DNA of 64,000 nt from a virus (lineage: Duplodnaviria > Caudoviricetes), in the IMG/VR virus record IMGVR_UViG_3300013426_000001, positions 74,524-138,523 of that record. One strand, written 5' to 3'. Below the pieces are notes generated by a model. It did not search any database, was not told the DNA's origin, and saw only the letters and a list, made by a program, of their open reading frames with translations. Within the stretch, counting starts at the first letter, position 1. Every line of letters begins with the position of its first letter. Of the stretch, positions 4,958 through 56,346 are shown piece after piece. A program made the position numbers and the translations under genes.

Positions 4958-6142
4958 ATGAACGTTAAAATTGTAATAGGATCTAATTATGGAGACGAAG
5001 GGAAAGGGTTAACTTCTCGTTACTTTGCCCAAAAAGCCGAAGGAAGTTGCTTAACCGTTTTACATAATGGGGGAGCACAAAGAGGGCATACCGTTGATTA
5101 TTCGGAAGATAAGAGATTTGTATACCATCATCTCGCTTGTGGAACTGCTGATGGGAGTGATACTTATTTTGAGCAAAACTTCATAATTAATCCTATTCTT
5201 TTTAACAGAGAGGTTGAAGAGCTTGAAAAAATAAACATTCGCAATTACAGCGTATTTATTTCGCCTCGTTGCAGAGTGACAACCCCATACGATATGATAC
5301 TCAATCAAATGGTTGAACGGACACGGGGTGGTCAAAAACACGGTTCTTGCGGAGTTGGTATCTTTGAAACTATAAAGAGATATGAAAGTTCTGAATATAA
5401 TAAAACCTTTTCCGAGATGAAGAATATGACCGATTTGGAATTATTTAGATATATCGAAGAAATTTCTAGGGCATATTTATTCAGTAAAATCGAAGAATAC
5501 AAAATTCCGAGAAATATTTCTGATGATTATTTGCCGTCAATTACTTCTCGTAAATTTTTGACCGATTATATTATAGATTTTCGCTTGATGGCATCTGAAA
5601 TAACGGAGATAGAACCGTGGGATTTGTACGGGAATTATGATACTCTTATATTTGAAGGGGCGCAGGGGCTCGCTTTGGATATGGACAACAAAGAAAATTT
5701 CCCTTATTTGACGCCAAGCAAAACAGGTTGTTACAACCCGCGAAATTCTCTTGAAGAATATGGGAAAATTCCTTTTAATATTGAGTTATGTTACATTACA
5801 AGAACCTATCTTACTCGACACGGAGCGGGTCCTTTTCCCTCGGAATGTAAAAAAGAAGAAATTAACGAGCGGATCGAGGACAAAACGAACGTTCCTAATC
5901 CATATCAAGATAGTATAAGATATGGGAAGTTCGATATAACGGCGTTTTTAAATAGAATTAAGTCAGACGAAATTACTTTCCCCTATCATCACATCTCTAC
6001 GTGTTTTATTACACATAATAATTATGTGGATGTTGAGGGTTCTGAGGTCGAAGAGCAGCTCGCGCCGAACTTTCATTTTTTATATTTTTCAGGTGATAAG
6101 TTCGGTGAAAAAATAAAAACGAAGAGAGGAGAGAGAAAATGA
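4958..6142 (+). CDS. divergent adenylosuccinate synthetase-family protein
   Basis: GDEGKG, GGAQRGHTV, HGSCGVG, FEGAQG, TRHGAGPFPSE. Confidence 0.88.
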   Translation: MNVKIVIGSNYGDEGKGLTSRYFAQKAEGSCLTVLHNGGAQRGHTVDYSEDKRFVYHHLACGTADGSDTYFEQNFIINPILFNREVEELEKINIRNYSVFISPRCRVTTPYDMILNQMVERTRGGQKHGSCGVGIFETIKRYESSEYNKTFSEMKNMTDLELFRYIEEISRAYLFSKIEEYKIPRNISDDYLPSITSRKFLTDYIIDFRLMASEITEIEPWDLYGNYDTLIFEGAQGLALDMDNKENFPYLTPSKTGCYNPRNSLEEYGKIPFNIELCYITRTYLTRHGAGPFPSECKKEEINERIEDKTNVPNPYQDSIRYGKFDITAFLNRIKSDEITFPYHHISTCFITHNNYVDVEGSEVEEQLAPNFHFLYFSGDKFGEKIKTKRGERK

Positions 6143-6576
6143 AAGCATATAGGCACGTTTATCTCGATTTTCCTAATTTCACACAGGAAAGCTACTACGA
6201 AGTTACAAGTAAAGTAACTTTTCAAAACGGCGTAGAGGACGAGATTAAAACAACAATTGTTTGCGACGATCCCTATGACGCGATGAGAATGGTTCGAGAA
6301 TTTCTTTTATCAAAAAAGGATTGGCTTGTAACGGAAGTCCGTGGACAGAGTTGCGAAGGAGGCGCGGTATTGGTCGCAAAGCCAGAAGTTCCAGAAAAGA
6401 AATGGGTAATTATTGGTGATGGATATTATCTTAAATTCAAACATTATTCAATGATTTACACTACTGTTAATGGATTTAATGTTCATTATGGGATGTTCGA
6501 TAAAAAAGAAAAAGCAGACGAACGTTGTGCGGAGTTAAATAAAGAGTGGGAAGAATATTTTGGAGATAAAAAATGA
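6139..6576 (+). CDS. hypothetical protein
   Basis: coupled ORF with RBS. Confidence 0.55.
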   Translation: MKAYRHVYLDFPNFTQESYYEVTSKVTFQNGVEDEIKTTIVCDDPYDAMRMVREFLLSKKDWLVTEVRGQSCEGGAVLVAKPEVPEKKWVIIGDGYYLKFKHYSMIYTTVNGFNVHYGMFDKKEKADERCAELNKEWEEYFGDKK

Positions 6577-6950: not shown

Positions 6951-6986
6951 TCGGTTAATAGAATAGTTATTTTATGAGGTGGTTTT

Positions 6987-7298
6987 ATGAATCGACAGAC
7001 AAAAAACAAATTAGATTTTATCATTCAAATAGTAGTATTAATTTTAGTAACTGCTTTTGCTTTAACAGGACCAATCATTTCTTTTATTCATCAATATCAT
7101 TTAATTGTTGAAGAGTTTGGGCGGTTTATTGGTGGCGTTTTTATTTACGACAATTATGCATGGTGGAACTTGACAGCTTTAACTTGGTTTCCTTATGGTG
7201 TTTATCTCAAGATTTCGAACAAGAAAACAAATAAGGAAATGGCGAAGGAAATGTATGAATTAATGTATTGGACGGAAAAAGAAGATGACAAAAAATAA
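6987..7298 (+). CDS. small membrane protein
   Basis: hydrophobic segment FIIQIVVLILVTAFAL. Confidence 0.55.
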   Translation: MNRQTKNKLDFIIQIVVLILVTAFALTGPIISFIHQYHLIVEEFGRFIGGVFIYDNYAWWNLTALTWFPYGVYLKISNKKTNKEMAKEMYELMYWTEKEDDKK

Positions 7299-7686
7299 TA
7301 TCCCTGAAGTTGGCAAAACATACGCCTTTTTCGATGACGGCAAAACTGGACTTTCTCGCCGTTATAAAGCAACGGTTTTAGGCAAAATTCCGTTCGAAGT
7401 GGCAGAAGAGCTTTATCCCGAACTTTTTGCGGGTTGGAAAGAAAACCTCGAAGAAGCCGATTTTCTTTACGCGCCGATAACCGACTTTTTTGTGAAATGT
7501 TCAATCCCGAACTATGACGATGACTTTGTTTATTTCGTTCGTGATATAAATGGTGGCTGGTCTTCGATTGATTTTCCGAATAGCTGGATGAATGGACTTC
7601 TCGATGTTGATGGAGAATACGGTAAGAAAAACGATATTCCGCCTGTAGAAAAATGGGTGGCTGGGAAAGACTATTTAGGAGATTGA
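7285..7686 (+). CDS. hypothetical phage protein
   Basis: ORF; FFDDGK and LLDVDG motifs. Confidence 0.6.
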   Translation: MTKNNIPEVGKTYAFFDDGKTGLSRRYKATVLGKIPFEVAEELYPELFAGWKENLEEADFLYAPITDFFVKCSIPNYDDDFVYFVRDINGGWSSIDFPNSWMNGLLDVDGEYGKKNDIPPVEKWVAGKDYLGD

Positions 7687-7838
7687 TTGATGACAATTAG
7701 CGTACATACACGAGAAATATGCCCGTTATATTATTTCAACGTGAATAGTGTAGAAGAAACGTGGAACGGGTTCAGGGTTTATCTCGATAATGGATTTTAC
7801 AAAGATTTTAACAAAGATTGGTGGTGGGAGGAAGAAAA

Positions 7839-8147
7839 ATGATACAGATTACGAATAAAGACTTTTACAAGCGGTATAAAAGTTTCAGCGGCTCCTTTTC
7901 CGAGTGGTTTAACGCTTGTGTAGACGAACACGACGTTTTTCGTTTTTGGTACAAAGACGACCCCGAAGACGCAAACGCCGATTACGTCCAAATTTCGAGC
8001 GTTATCGACATAGGCGGAGATTTTCTGCTCGGGTTGAAATTCGTTGACTGGAACGGCGAAGAAGAAGGGAAGGAAATGGTCGAATTCAGAAGATTGAGCG
8101 AGGTGAGAGCAATCGAGATTTTTGCGAATGAGGAGGATTCGGAATGA
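7839..8147 (+). CDS. hypothetical acidic protein
   Basis: GGAGG-ATG 7839. Confidence 0.55.
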   Translation: MIQITNKDFYKRYKSFSGSFSEWFNACVDEHDVFRFWYKDDPEDANADYVQISSVIDIGGDFLLGLKFVDWNGEEEGKEMVEFRRLSEVRAIEIFANEEDSE

Positions 8148-8605
8148 TTGAAATTTTGTTTAGGGGTAAACGCAAAGATAATGATCAATGGGTGCATGGG
8201 TTTTACTTTAAACGAGTCAGAAATTATGCGGGATTTAAAACCGAAGAACAGGCTTATATCAAATATGAAACTTGGGATGAAGGTTTTGTTACTTATGAAG
8301 TCACCCTTAAAACTGTTGGTCAATTTACTGGGTTAACCGATAAAAACGGGCAGAAGATATTTGAAGGTGATATTCTTCGGGGATTCTGTTATCCTTTTCG
8401 AGATGGTGAGGGTAAGCATAACTATTATGCAGAAATTGTCTGGTTCAGCAACAGCCCTGCTTTTGGGTTGATCGCCCACAAAACTCCAACATCTAACGTG
8501 GTTGGGATTGCAGACGGAAATTGTGAATATCTTGAAGATTGGGATAATACTCAATGGGAAGTAATTGGCAATATTTATGATAATCCCGAACTTTTGGAGG
8601 ATTAA
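8144..8605 (+). CDS. YopX family protein
   Basis: EILFRGK, GQFTGLTDKNGQKIFEGDI, EVIGNIYDNPELL. Confidence 0.9.
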   Translation: MIEILFRGKRKDNDQWVHGFYFKRVRNYAGFKTEEQAYIKYETWDEGFVTYEVTLKTVGQFTGLTDKNGQKIFEGDILRGFCYPFRDGEGKHNYYAEIVWFSNSPAFGLIAHKTPTSNVVGIADGNCEYLEDWDNTQWEVIGNIYDNPELLED

Positions 8606-20119: not shown

Positions 20120-20203
20120 AAAAAATTTAAAAAAACCTCATAAAAACGCTTGACAAACAAAACAAGATGTGTTATAATAAATGCGTAAATTGGAGGTAAG
20201 GTT

Positions 20204-20545: not shown

Positions 20546-21240
20546 AATACAGGTGCCGAATACCAGAGACGTCGGGTCAAAAGGTCGGTTAAATGCGGGA
20601 TTATGCAAGCCTGAGAAAGCAACAACCTCTGAATTGGTGTAAGTGTGTATTAACACCGCCAGGATACGGCGGTATCCATGTAAGCAGGAAGTTGCAGGGG
20701 TCAACTAAAGGCGGCGGCTCGTTAAGCCGTGTAGCAACCCCTCAAAAACTCTATAATTGCACAGCGGATTGTAGATAATGGTGCGGCGCCAACAAGCCGA
20801 AATCAATGCAGTACGTAAGGGACTGATGGTTTACTGAGAAACAGAAAATCTCAAAGCTGTAAAAATATTTTAATAGGTGCTACGAAATCCTCTTAATTAT
20901 ACAAGAGCACTTAAAGTGTGACTTGCTTGCGTAATGACTTAAAGAACCTCGTTGAGTAGAGGTGGTCAGGGTTTAGTATCGAGGGAAAGGCGGTAGTAAA
21001 TGGAGTTGGACGAACAGCCTATATAGAGTTGATGGTGTAAAAATCTCTTAAAACCATCTTACGGAAAGATCCCCAAAAGGGACTGCGGGCGTTACGATTT
21101 TTTCCAGCGCCCACCGCTGACCAACATGCGGGATATAAGTGGCTGGGTCGACAAGTATCAAAAACAGGAATAACTCGAACTGTTTAGTTCCATCTCGGCT
21201 GGACGAGAGGTTTCTCCCCAAAGTACACGGGGATAGGGTT
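20546..21240 (+). ncRNA. large structured ncRNA candidate (GOLLD/ROOL size class, family unassigned)
   Basis: ~700 nt without an RBS-led ORF, more than 10 short hairpins, directly 5' of tRNA-Ser. Confidence 0.65.
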
Positions 21241-21488: not shown

Positions 21489-21562
21489 AGGCAATTAGCA
21501 CAAAAGCAGTGCAACCGACTTTGACTCGGTTTACGTTGGAGCGTTACCAGCATTGCCTGCCA
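21489..21562 (+). tRNA. tRNA-Gln(UUG), non-canonical D/T loops
   Basis: AGGCAAT/ATTGCCT, ACCGA-CTTTGAC-TCGGT, GCCA end; T-loop AGCGTTA. Confidence 0.85.
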
Positions 21563-21718
21563 TTATGCCGCACGTACTTTCACGCGGCGGGGAAGACGAA
21601 GAGAAAGCGGAGCTTGAGAAGTGCGCAAACGGAGTAGGTCGTGTGCGCAAGTCATTACTCATCAAGGCAATTACTTTGGTTAGGCGCAAGATTGCTACGT
21701 TTTTGCGAGGAGGTTTAT

Positions 21719-22828
21719 ATGAAACTTAATAAAGCATTTAAATTTAGATTATTGCCAAATCAAAATCAAATAGATCTCCTTGGAAAAACTTTTGGTTGTT
21801 GTAGATCTATTTATAATAAAATGCTTGAAGATAAAATCAAATATTATGAAGAGACAAAAAAGAATTTATCTGTAACTCCAGCACAATATAAACAAGAATT
21901 TGAGTGGTTAAAAGAAGTTGATTCTTATTCTTTGTGTAATGAACAGATGAATTTACAAACTGCTTTCAATAATTTCTTTAGAAACCCAAAAGTTGGCTTC
22001 CCAAAATTCAAAAGCAAAAAGAGTGACAAAAGCAGTTATACAACAAGCAATGTTAGTAATATAATTAGAGTTAACGATAAGCACCAAATTCATCTATGTA
22101 AACTTGGTTGGGTTAAATTTGTAGAACATCGAAAAATTCCAACTGATTACAAAATTAAATCAGTAACAATTACCAAAACTCCATCGGGGAAATATTATAT
22201 TTCAATTTTAACCGAATATGAATATGAAATCTCCAAAAGAGTTTTAGATAAAAACAAATCTCTTGGATTAGATTACAGCTCTCATGACTTTTATGTCGAT
22301 AACCAAGGCAGAAATCCAGAGCATTTACATCATTATTACAGAGATTTGCAAAACAAACTTGCTTTTCACCAAAGAAAACTTTCGCATATGGTTAAGGATA
22401 GCAACAATTATGCTAAACAGAAAATAGTTATTGCTCGAATACACGAAAAGATTTCTAATCAGAGAAAAGATTTCGTAGAAAAAGAATCGACGAAACTCGC
22501 AGACTTATACGACGTTATCTGCCTCGAAAATATTGATTTGTCAAATATTGCTCAATCGTTAAAACTCGGTAAAAGCACGTTAGATAATGCCTTCGGGACG
22601 TTCAGAAATAGATTAGAGCAAAAGATGATATTGCAAGGGAAATTGGTCGCCAAAATAGATAAGTGGTTTCCCTCAAGCAAACTTTGCAGATTTTGTGGTT
22701 GCATTAACAAAGATTTGAAATTGTCCGACAGGGTTTGGAAATGTGAATGCGGTAAAACTCTTAACAGAGATGAAAATGCTGCGATAAATATTCTTAACAA
22801 AGGATTAAAGCAATTGACAATAGCATAA
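21719..22828 (+). mobile_element. tnpB: full-length TnpB (IS200/IS605), no tnpA
   Basis: KAFKFRLLP HTH, GLD, CLENIDL, CRFC/CECG Zn finger, RDENAAINI; RuvC D-E-D intact. Confidence 0.95.
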
Positions 22829-22842
22829 AAATATGTTATAAT
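22814..22842 (+). promoter_or_regulatory. promoter overlapping tnpB stop, positioned to start at the omegaRNA
   Basis: TTGACA 22814, 17 nt, TGn-TATAAT 22837. Confidence 0.8.
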
Positions 22843-22850
22843 TGAAATAG

Positions 22851-22965
22851 AACCGTTAGAACGACGGGGATAGCTTGTTGAAACTGATATTGTTTGGTAT
22901 CTTGAGCAAGAAACTCTGATGTTTTAGCATCGTGAGTAGTTCGCAATACGAGTTTTATTAATCTT
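22851..22965 (+). ncRNA. TnpB omegaRNA (scaffold plus putative guide)
   Basis: AACCGTyrGAACGACGGGGATAGCTTG...CAAGAA...GTTC shared with 38140-38232. Confidence 0.8.
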
Positions 22966-22972
22966 ATGAAAT

Positions 22973-23136
22973 ATGGCTGTACACGTAACGGCAACGTGAC
23001 CGAATCGTAAGTGTCGGAAAGGAAATAAACCCTCAATTGAGGCAATCAACGACGGTTGAAAGCGAATGAATTGGGTTTGAGTTTTCGCGAAAGTGCTCTA
23101 ACTTTATTGTGAGTTCAAATCTCACCAGCCATTCCA
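22973..23136 (+). ncRNA. 164-nt tRNA-like RNA with expanded central domain
   Basis: ATGGCTG/CAGCCAT+TCCA, D arm CACG/CGTG, T arm GTGAG-TTCAAAT-CTCAC, ~110 nt between D and T arms. Confidence 0.75.
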
Positions 23137-23266
23137 CCACCCTGCGGTAGGTATACATACGCGCAGTCCGAAGCTATTGGCGGATATGGAATTTGTGTAT
23201 AGCTAACACACTACGACGGAGTGGACGGGATTTCCCGCGTACCAGACAAAAGAAACCACTCCACCA
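23137..23266 (+). ncRNA. post-tRNA structured RNA motif, copy A
   Basis: CACCCTRCGG..TCCGAA..TGGCGGATA..ACGAC..GACA shared with 23344-23464. Confidence 0.6.
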
Positions 23267-23343
23267 CGGGGTGTAGCGCAGCTTGATAGCGCGTTCGGTT
23301 TGGGACCGAAAGGTCGGAAGTTTGAATCTTCTCACCCCGACCA
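23267..23343 (+). tRNA. tRNA-Pro(UGG)
   Basis: CGGGGTG/CACCCCG, TTCGG-TTTGGGA-CCGAA, ACCA. Confidence 0.93.
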
Positions 23344-23464
23344 GCACCCTACGGCAGACATTCTGAAGATGTTATGTGTGGTCCGAAAAATGGCGGATAG
23401 AGAGAAGGAAGCATTGCGCAATGCTTAGAACGACTGGGAATCTCGACATTAACCTTACCAGCCA
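23344..23464 (+). ncRNA. post-tRNA structured RNA motif, copy B
   Basis: same conserved blocks and stem order as 23137-23266. Confidence 0.6.
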
Positions 23465-23558: not shown

Positions 23559-23634
23559 AAATATTTTTAGAAACCGTGTTATTTTGCTTGACACGGTTTC
23601 TTTTTTGTGTTATACTTATCTCAAAGGAGATTTT

Positions 23635-37789: not shown

Positions 37790-38232
37790 TTGACAAATAT
37801 TATTCGAGAAAACGACGTAATTTGTATTGAAGATTTGCAAGTGAAAAATATGGTCAAAAACCATAAACTCGCGCAAGCAATTAGCGACGTTTCTTGGTCG
37901 GAGTTTGTTCGGGAATTAGAATATAAGGCGCGTTGGTATGGAAGATTAGTTATTAAAGTCGATAAGTTTTTCCCGAGTTCTCAAACTTGCAGTGTCTGCG
38001 GCTACAAGAATGAAGGGACAAAAGACTTAAAAGTTAGAGAATGGGATTGCCCTGTTTGTCATACTCATCATGATAGGGATGTGAATGCGGCGATAAACAT
38101 TCTCAATGAAGGGCTTAAACAATTAGCCTAAACATAAACAACCGTCGGAACGACGGGGATAGCTTGGTAAATATTCTCGCAGTAGTCGGAAGTTCCCAAG
38201 AATCTCGCAGATTTAGTTGTGAGAGGTTCAAA
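37790..38232 (+). pseudogene. tnpB: 5'-truncated tnpB with intact omegaRNA/right end
   Basis: only ICIEDL, Zn finger and RDVNAAINI remain; scaffold ends GGTTCAA. Confidence 0.85.
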
Positions 38233-38545
38233 CGAGTATATACTCTTAGTAATCATAGTTCCGTACTTTTATTATACTCTTCTAGTATATATACTCTTAT
38301 ATCGGATATATTCTTTCAGAATATATCCTCTTAAACTATTCACTTCGTTCATAGTTTAGGTTTAATATTATTCTTTTATTTATTACTTATACTTAGCTTA
38401 ATACAAGTGAAGAGTATATATTACCAGTAAACTTAATATGAGTATATTTTAAATAATATATAATAATATATATAAGAGAAATATATAAAGAGAATATAAA
38501 TAATACATGAGTAATTGGTAACACTCTTTATATACTCCGTACTAG
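38233..38545. repeat. very AT-rich tract with TATACTCTT-type repeats
   Basis: repeats in both orientations; palindrome GAGTATATACTC. Confidence 0.6.
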
Positions 38546-38843
38546 TGATTAGAGAAAAGGGTAGACCAAACCATACGCGAAGTTCCGCACAAAAAAAAAG
38601 CGCCCGCCGCCAAAACAAAAAAATCCCTAAAATATTTTTTTTGAAAACCGCTGTCAAATACTTGACAATCTTCCCGCGTTGTGGTATAATACTTTTGCAA
38701 GCTGAAAGAGCGGTGTTGGATATCGGTTGTGCAAAGTTGTTGCCGCTCCCGCTTGCACCAGGTCTCAATATCCGCCGCCTTAAAACACAGCATTCCTTCG
38801 GCGGCGGGAGACCACCACTAAACAGATACTCTCGGAGGGAATT

Positions 38844-51537: not shown

Positions 51538-52784
51538 AAGCTTATACCTCCTTTATTTGCTCGTTAGCGGCGCTTCTGCTCACTCACCCAGAACAGACAG
51601 GGAATGGAAACATCCGCGTTGTTACGCAGTGCGGATGTAAGGCTGCGTCGAACTATCTTTCAAGTTCGATTAAGCGGCGTTCAACCGCTTTTGCGACTTC
51701 CCAGTCGTGAGCTTTGCGTGCTCTTTCGAGCCACGTCGTGAGCTTTGACTTGTCAGCCGTTTGACGTATGTAATCAAACACGTCCATTTCGTTCACCTCC
51801 TTTGACTTAAAGCTCTTCCTGTTCGCATTCGAGCTGATATTGGTCATCAACTCCGATGCTGGAAAGGAATTCAGCAACCATATCGGCTGCTTGCCTTGCC
51901 GTCTTTGCGCAAAAGATGCGAGAGAGGCGTACTTCATCGTTCGTGTCGAGTAACATGATCTTGAAAGTGTAACCTTTCAGCATTTTGGTACCTCCTTTTT
52001 TTGTGCTTTTAGCCAGCCAGCTGTTACGATTTACGAAAACGTAACTTGCCGAATGCTTGCTCGGGCTTGTGACCGAGCTGCCGCATTAACGCCTTTCGGC
52101 GCCACTCTGCGTAGTGTTTTTTACGTGGTTATCGCTTCCACGTCTTGTGTTAGTCTACTATCTCTATTTTGCCGTGTTTTTTCAAAAGTTCAACTTGTTT
52201 CATCATTTTTTCAAATGACGAATAAATGCAGAAATAATCATTTTTAGGATCGTCATGCATAATTTTGAGTTGGAAGTTATCTAAGCCTTTGTAAAATTTG
52301 AAACCTTTAATCATTTTAGGTTCCTCCGTTCTTTATTCCGTTAGCGGTGCTGTTGCTCACTCACGAAGAGCAACCATCGAAGCAGTTTTACATCTTACTT
52401 GGGATGTAATAATGTATTTCGCTTATAAAATAAGGTAATTTACATTATCTTAATTCACTTTTATTACTATATATAGTATATGTTATCCCTTTTCACACTC
52501 AACTCAGAATTCCTCCCCCACTAATTAAAGACGCCCAACTCAAAACACCATCCCCTCCTCAAATTCCAACCCGCGTAACCACCCATTCCCATTTTTTGAA
52601 CCCCAATTCTCAATCCACCTCAACCCTCCAAACGTCTGGACAATTTCACATTTACATTCACCCACCTAAAACCTTTACCCTTTTGCCCCCTCTTAAAAAA
52701 AAATAAAAAAAATCAAAAATCCCCCCAAATCGCTTGACAAATCCCCTTCCCTGTGTTATACTATACTCAAACAAGGAGGCAATT

Positions 52785-56307: not shown

Positions 56308-56335
56308 CATAACCCCTCATTTTCGAGGGGTTATG
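56308..56335. terminator. hairpin terminator
   Basis: CATAACCCCTC/GAGGGGTTATG. Confidence 0.65.
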
Positions 56336-56346
56336 TGGGGGTTACA

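Follow-up and report, generated by a model that had tools for sequence, protein, structure and literature searches.

The window analysed here, meaning the whole stretch of DNA under study, makes up the final 64 kb of an IMG/VR virus record that is complete at 138.5 kb and carries direct terminal repeats. It contains 20 perfect TTGACA-N16-18-TATAAT promoters, nearly all of them TG-extended, compared with 0.06 expected by chance, as is characteristic of a large Bacillota phage of the lytic type. The source can be typed as an uncultured gut- or rumen-type phage of 138 kb, and the cellular TnpB proteins nearest to the one described below are found in Christensenella, Oscillospiraceae and Ruminococcus MAGs from rumen, gut and digesters. 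The same genome also encodes a Type-P5 twister ribozyme (52061-52111, minus strand; Rfam RF02684; 58.2 bits, gathering score 37.6).

The locus of interest is a tRNA island comprising in order a promoter, a structured non-coding RNA, tRNA-Ser, tRNA-Gln, a TnpB cassette, a tRNA-like RNA, tRNA-Pro and a terminator; the promoter, tRNA-Gln, the cassette, the tRNA-like RNA, tRNA-Pro and the terminator are on the plus strand. The island is headed by a consensus phage promoter (20150-20178), the left neighbour of the cassette is tRNA-Gln(UUG) (21489-21562), and the two are followed by an island spacer (21563-21709) that is common to relatives lacking TnpB at this site, with 86% identity to one of them (G004) up to GCGAG. 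On the plus strand of 21563-21718, there are zero promoter-like sites scoring at least 9/12, and the promoter at 20150-20178 is the sole candidate for producing tnpB mRNA, presumably via read-through. Downstream, tRNA-Pro(UGG) (23267-23343) would be co-transcribed, and the first intrinsic terminator 3' of the promoter that precedes the omegaRNA is located at 23569-23601. Conserved structured spacers occupy 23141-23266 and 23344-23464, starting with CCCTGCGG/CCCTACGG right after the CCA ends, and are also present in the relatives G004 and G007. In a further relative, G006 (locus L038), the same tRNA island houses two IscB-type genes (RRXRR plus HNH; 5564-6391 and 6972-8219) encoding proteins of 275 aa and 415 aa, the second of which removes the 3' end of tRNA-Trp. 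The tRNA island is an OMEGA-nuclease hot spot.

The tnpB gene (21719-22828) encodes an intact protein of 369 aa and is preceded by a ribosome-binding site (AGGAGG, 21708-21713) that forms the first bases of the cassette and is shared with three homologous IS copies (L003, L004 and L164). Three Pfam domains score above their cut-offs, namely PF12323 (HTH_OrfB_IS605), PF01385 (OrfB_IS605) and PF07282 (Cas12f1-like TNB), and the protein aligns with ISDra2 TnpB (8bf8) over residues 3-363 with E=1.7e-64. The RuvC D-E-D triad is complete, with GLD, CLEN and RDENAA aligning with D191, E278 and D361 of ISDra2, while the second zinc knuckle reads CxC (CxxC in ISDra2), a feature common to the whole clade. 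By every sequence test, the gene is a tnpB, and RNA-guided, TAM-dependent cleavage is predicted for its product. Relative to homologues L003-L006, dN/dS is 0.055-0.077, an average across the whole divergence rather than solely since immobilisation, and tnpB is under strong purifying selection. The first-pass annotation, which had described an intact TnpB within a tRNA island, is thus borne out on both points: the reading frame, its domains and its aligned triad are as given above, with tRNA-Gln on the left and the tRNA-like RNA and tRNA-Pro on the right.

Loss of transposon functions and the omegaRNA promoter

TnpB relatives retrieved from IMG/VR (n=17) include many from 130-150 kb phages of one sample (3300045988). 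The closest bacterial-MAG copy, L164 (84% aa identity), is a complete element with a left-end hairpin, TnpA, an internal TTGACA/TATACT promoter, tnpB and omegaRNA, and the closest phage copy, L003 in relative G001 (92% aa identity), is a clean insertion that has the left end, a tnpA stub and the same internal promoter. Homology of the window to L003, L004 and L164 starts only at the ribosome-binding site (21708), indicating that the left end, TnpA and the upstream tnpB promoter are missing. At the left junction, GCGAG is directly followed by the ribosome-binding site, with neither the left-end hairpin (present in L003, L164 and L012) nor a TAM. Given that the spacer upstream is common to TnpB-less relatives, the left junction (GCG-AG-GAGG) is best read as an illegitimate fusion. 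A search of the complete 138.5-kb record for the Y1 transposase TnpA (PF01797) gave 0 matches, while control genomes did match, in agreement with the earlier statement that tnpA is absent. With the left end, TnpA and the tnpB promoter lost and no Y1 transposase elsewhere in the genome, the element cannot transpose. Judged by its structure, the cassette is a 5'-truncated IS605-family element; a mobilisable IS200/IS605 element is ruled out by the absence of TnpA and of the left end, and a clean recent insertion by the lack of a left end or TAM and by flanks that are not collinear with the relatives' allele.

The carriage of tnpB by phages is in itself ordinary, as 412 GenBank phage records contain TnpB homologues (named "transposase" or similar where annotated). 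New in this locus are a transposase-less state maintained under selection, a promoter dedicated to the omegaRNA and a pattern of reciprocal targeting between phages that occur together. Among the related phages, G008 carries a TnpB gene (L013, 3001-4104) with two in-frame TAG codons and a TAA stop; both TAG codons fall at positions that are Gln in all homologues, suggesting TAG-to-Gln recoding in this phage.

At the 3' end of tnpB lies a sigma-70-type promoter of the form TTGACA-N17-TGnTATAAT (22814-22842), which belongs to the 20 perfect consensus matches counted in the window. Its -35 hexamer (22814-22819) is embedded in the last tnpB codons (CAA TTG ACA ATA GCA TAA), the stop codon falls within the 17-nt spacer, and the extended -10 element (TGTTATAAT, ending at 22842) contains TATAAT at 22837-22842. 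The predicted start, 22849/22850, falls exactly where the omegaRNA scaffold begins, a block that all homologues conserve, so that the earlier description of a perfect phage-style promoter built from the last codons and stop of tnpB and starting at the scaffold 5' end holds. This promoter is missing in the closest homologues, L003, L004 and L164, relative to which the window has different last codons and about 20 additional nucleotides between the stop codon and the scaffold. Comparable arrangements recur in other phage cassettes. In G006 (L212, 1849-1877), a different TnpB type ending in QLTA* is followed by TTGACA-N17-TATAAT with its start at the scaffold; in G008 (L013), the equivalent motif before the scaffold is TTGAAA-N18-TATAAT; and three contigs of the L218 group have an extended -10 element sharing AAAAATATGTTATAAT with the window. 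TnpA is absent upstream of the promoter-bearing cassettes in G006, G008 and the L218 group. In an IMG/VR sample of 83 distinct scaffolds, even a -10-like box at the equivalent position is confined to about 3-6, and the promoter was accordingly rejected as a trait of the family. Its absence from the closest homologues, its recurrence in TnpA-less cassettes and its low frequency in the sample together indicate a rare, derived feature that recurs in immobilised phage cassettes. It may have spread through recombination between cassettes or arisen by convergence on the phage consensus.

The omegaRNA scaffold itself (22849-22944), at the right end of the IS, is conserved in at least 15 homologues and supported by compensatory changes in 15 of 22 predicted pairs, and a search of Rfam returned no match for it. 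It terminates at 22944 in TTCGC (GTAGTTCGC), where 15 homologues have TTCAC (GTAGTTCAC). A second copy in the window consists of a 5'-truncated remnant of another tnpB type (37796-38131, plus strand; 43% aa identity), full-length versions of which occur in G006 and G008, followed by a promoterless scaffold (38140-38232, plus strand) that ends in TTCAA. The two scaffold ends had been contrasted in the first-pass annotation, and both are as described there. The second scaffold has the first helix in common with that of the cassette and lacks the 20-nt block that carries the -10 box, which agrees with the promoter having been noted as absent from the copy at 38131. At this second copy, the deletion junction generates a TTGACA hexamer with no -10 box (37790-38232), and the region right after its scaffold (38232-38560) is AT-rich, with GC content down to 26%, and contains many GAGTATATACTC palindromes and variants, which may constitute an origin-like or protein-binding array.

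The guide, its matches and the tRNA-like neighbour

The first 20 nt of the flank (22945-22964) constitute the putative guide, which is separated from the tRNA-like RNA by 8 nt, giving the 28-nt gap (22945-22972) that had already been reported. In the syntenic relatives G004, G006 and G007, no cassette is present at this site. G004 and G007 instead have a short hairpin and then tRNA-Trp(CCA), and the tRNA-Trp of G006 is shortened at its 3' end through the IscB gene inserted there. In all three phages, the right arm of the hairpin in the tRNA-Trp leader is matched without error by guide nucleotides 1-15, which read as its reverse complement. The match lies on the opposite strand inside the hairpin, is mismatched at nucleotides 16-20 (15/20 identical), and is preceded by CATAA on the matching strand; the phage's own copy of the guide is preceded by the scaffold end, without a TAM. 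Of the five guide positions outside the 10-nt hairpin core, all agree with the right-arm complement and none with the left arm. For a slot of about 80 nt at the allelic position, the probability of an exact 15-mer is about 1e-7, and the match there is not a chance event, although it could be a relic of homology rather than a working target. In IMG/VR, the 15-mer has more than 100 matches, all of them unrelated chance ones apart from those in the three syntenic relatives.

The TAM preference was deduced from flanks of related elements: TGTAA at the empty allele of L003, GTTAA at the empty alleles of the G004 cassette (L011), TATAA 5' of the L164 left end, and TTTAA 5' of the left ends of L008, L009 and L012. 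These four independent cases point to NTAA as the probable TAM of the family, which CATAA, the presumptive TAM of the window TnpB, fits; CATAA differs at two positions from the TGTAA of the closest homologue.

No second guide site was found in the phage's own genome at up to 3 mismatches, and the 20-mer had no exact match in 185,579 species genomes, a weak negative given that the host genome may be outside that collection. Host targeting, which had been proposed as one role of the guide, therefore finds no support in either search, which leaves the orthologous locus in sibling phages as the one meaningful target. The guide match in the three syntenic relatives best supports the other proposed role, the targeting of other phages. 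The window also contains the converse. At 20721-20741 (plus strand), GTTAA is followed by 14/16 nt of the G004 guide, marking the empty allele for the G004 cassette, with the same arrangement in G006 and G007, and at 56325-56346 (minus strand), TGTAA is followed by 14/16 nt of the L003 guide, marking the empty allele for the G001 IS. With TAM-flanked protospacers for both cassettes, this phage itself would be a target in mixed infections.

Comparison of the alleles shows that the block 21710-23140 stands in place of the hairpin and tRNA-Trp between conserved flanks, with homology resuming at 23141, a replacement pattern that is as predicted for co-conversion. Within this block, the slot of the relatives' tRNA-Trp(CCA) is occupied by the 164-nt tRNA-like RNA (22973-23136), which combines a 7-bp acceptor stem with a GG-containing D arm, a canonical T arm, a U discriminator and an encoded CCA, and in which about 100 nt replace the anticodon and variable region. 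It has no match in Rfam, and no other copy of the RNA or of its junction, nor any near isolate, was found in IMG/VR or the metagenome collection, from which very near records may be missing. The ARAGORN assignment as "tRNA-Ser with a 70-nt intron" was rejected because it would require a U-U pair and an odd arm, and the RNA is not a copy of either the window tRNA-Ser or the relatives' tRNA-Trp.

A plausible consequence of this arrangement is that an RNase P cut at the 5' end of the tRNA-like RNA would leave a 28-nt guide tail. However, a tRNA was found within about 150 nt of none of 54 other scaffolds (0/54), so that a tRNA beside the omegaRNA is not a family trait. The juxtaposition is better read as a consequence of location in a tRNA island than as the designed processing system that had been envisaged, although the tRNA-like neighbour is possibly useful to the element.

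Interpretation and competing explanations

Taken as a whole, these observations are probably best explained by an immobilised TnpB-omegaRNA cassette that is missing its left end, transposase and upstream promoter and persists in the phage as a free-standing, RNA-guided nuclease for homing or marker exclusion. Since the guide matches the tRNA locus of related phages that lack TnpB there, the cassette looks like a homing nuclease acting between phages rather than a host-targeting system dependent on tRNA processing; the IscB genes in the same tRNA island of G006 are counted in favour of this reading as well. In the proposed mechanism, read-through transcripts of the tRNA island would allow translation of tnpB, while the omegaRNA would be transcribed separately from the promoter in the tnpB end, with its predicted start at the first scaffold base, and the transcript would continue into the tRNA-like RNA and tRNA-Pro. 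Cleavage by RNase P at 22972/22973 may then free the scaffold with its 28-nt guide tail, a step that is probably not essential. The guide would consist of flanking DNA, its 15-nt TAM-proximal part fitting the tRNA-Trp leader of cassette-free phages beside an NTAA-type TAM. During mixed infection, the nuclease would cut the rival allele, and with this genome as the repair template, the rival would receive the cassette and, hitch-hiking with it, the tRNA-like gene.

The main rival explanation concerns the reason for the existence of the promoter. With no terminator in between, it must also transcribe the tRNA-like RNA and tRNA-Pro, the first terminator being the one at 23569, and it could have been selected only to restore expression of these genes after a 1.2-kb AT-rich insertion had split the operon, in which case the omegaRNA would be a mere leader and TnpB a roleless part of a decaying IS605 remnant. 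Insertion-free relatives have no promoter at the site, the equivalent promoters in L013 and G006 also precede a ribosome-binding site and an ORF downstream of the guide, the left end and TnpA are gone, and the right-end tip is altered to TTCGC, all of which speak for this explanation. We nevertheless regard it as unlikely, given a dN/dS of about 0.06 with an intact active site and the retention of all covarying scaffold helices. Moreover, four cassette lineages place the promoter directly upstream of the scaffold, with a start no more than a few bases from the first helix, and not downstream of the right end, and a true remnant in the same genome, copy 2, displays what real decay looks like.

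Domestication as first suggested, with the guide 3' end set by RNase P at the tRNA-like RNA and the guide retargeted against the host or unrelated competitors, draws on the folded tRNA-like RNA (acceptor stem, D arm, T arm and CCA) only 28 nt after the scaffold, the absence of a terminator between the two, the cassette's own promoter and the loss of the transposition machinery. Against it stand the 54 scaffolds with no neighbouring tRNA, a tRNA-like RNA that recurs in no other record of IMG/VR or the metagenome collection, and a 20-nt guide with neither a match in the species genomes nor a second phage site; in addition, omegaRNAs of TnpB systems are not known to require a defined 3' processing site. 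Immobilisation, purifying selection and a dedicated promoter support part of the domestication claim. A retargeted guide finds no support: the sole meaningful match is the allelic site of relatives without TnpB, close to the outcome that the first-pass annotation had itself named as refuting, and this follows the logic of an IS or homing element and not that of a fully domesticated, retargeted guide. The complete model is accordingly considered improbable. An ordinary, recent and still mobile insertion (tnpB-only, IS1341-like and moved in trans) would suit the canonical right end, the identity of guide and flank, and the circulation of complete related elements in the same phage community, but it is highly improbable for a phage without TnpA whose left junction is an illegitimate fusion to the ribosome-binding site, with no left-end hairpin or TAM, and whose flanks do not represent a simple interruption of the relatives' allele.

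Beyond this locus, the homing or marker-exclusion reading may be extended, tentatively and with some doubt, to the community of large Clostridia-type phages to which this one belongs. Such phages might turn transposase-shed, promoter-driven, single-guide TnpB-omegaRNA (and IscB) nucleases on each other's alleles as an RNA-guided counterpart of the Seg/Mob nucleases. The cassette might then represent a living intermediate between an IS and a CRISPR-like effector whose guide is transcribed independently; in this phage, the 3' end of the guide would be matured through host tRNA processing.

Comparison with known systems and significance

The prevailing view is that TnpB persists by cleaving the donor site from which its own transposon has departed. 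The best reference for the window protein is ISDra2 TnpB (IS200/IS605; PDB 8bf8, 8exa and 8h1j), with which it shares the domain architecture and the RuvC D-E-D triad, as well as an omegaRNA at the tnpB 3' end that runs across the right end and uses flanking DNA as guide. Copies related to the window cassette also have 5' TAMs of the TTTAA/NTAA type. Unlike ISDra2, the cassette lacks TnpA, a left end and a TAM at the left junction, has a CxC second zinc knuckle, and resides in the tRNA operon of a lytic-type phage. In addition, a consensus promoter dedicated to the omegaRNA lies at the 5' end of the scaffold, so that excision from the tnpB mRNA would not be required.

The predicted processing of the window transcript resembles that of the engineered polycistronic tRNA-gRNA arrays reported by Xie and co-workers in 2015, in that a guide RNA directly precedes an RNase P substrate within one transcript. 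In contrast to these arrays, the window offers a single natural case without recurrence, and its tRNA-like RNA is atypical at 164 nt. A further point of comparison is TldR, a domesticated, nuclease-dead prophage TnpB (PMC10705468), which is likewise phage-borne, has lost its transposon functions and has kept an adjacent guide RNA. However, the window protein retains an intact RuvC triad and C-terminal domain, for which reason identity with TldR was rejected; the right end is retained, no accessory gene is associated, and the guide matches an allelic phage site rather than a host promoter.

Homing of TnpB into co-infecting phage genomes has so far been only a theoretical possibility (PMC13565253). 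The locus and its relatives provide a concrete natural case, comprising selected, putatively nuclease-competent TnpB genes without any transposase, guide RNAs with their own promoters, and reciprocal TAM-flanked targets in sibling phages of one sample. If cleavage and biased inheritance hold true, RNA-guided homing would count as an established force in the competition between phages, the TnpB homologues in the 412 GenBank phage records would be explained, and the locus would exemplify an early stage on the way to guides transcribed independently, as they are in CRISPR-Cas12.

In functional terms, the window TnpB appears to resemble most closely the free-standing homing endonucleases of phages, such as T4 SegB. 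According to the account of Brok-Volchanskaya et al. (2008) given in PMC13565253, SegB drives preferential inheritance of the T4 tRNA region and marker exclusion. Both nuclease genes lie inside a phage tRNA gene cluster and have a target, putative for the window, in the allele of related phages, and the neighbouring marker differs between the phages as co-conversion predicts, with a tRNA-like gene in place of tRNA-Trp. Unlike SegB, the window nuclease would recognise its target through a guide RNA and a TAM rather than through protein, with cleavage and biased inheritance as its putative outcomes.
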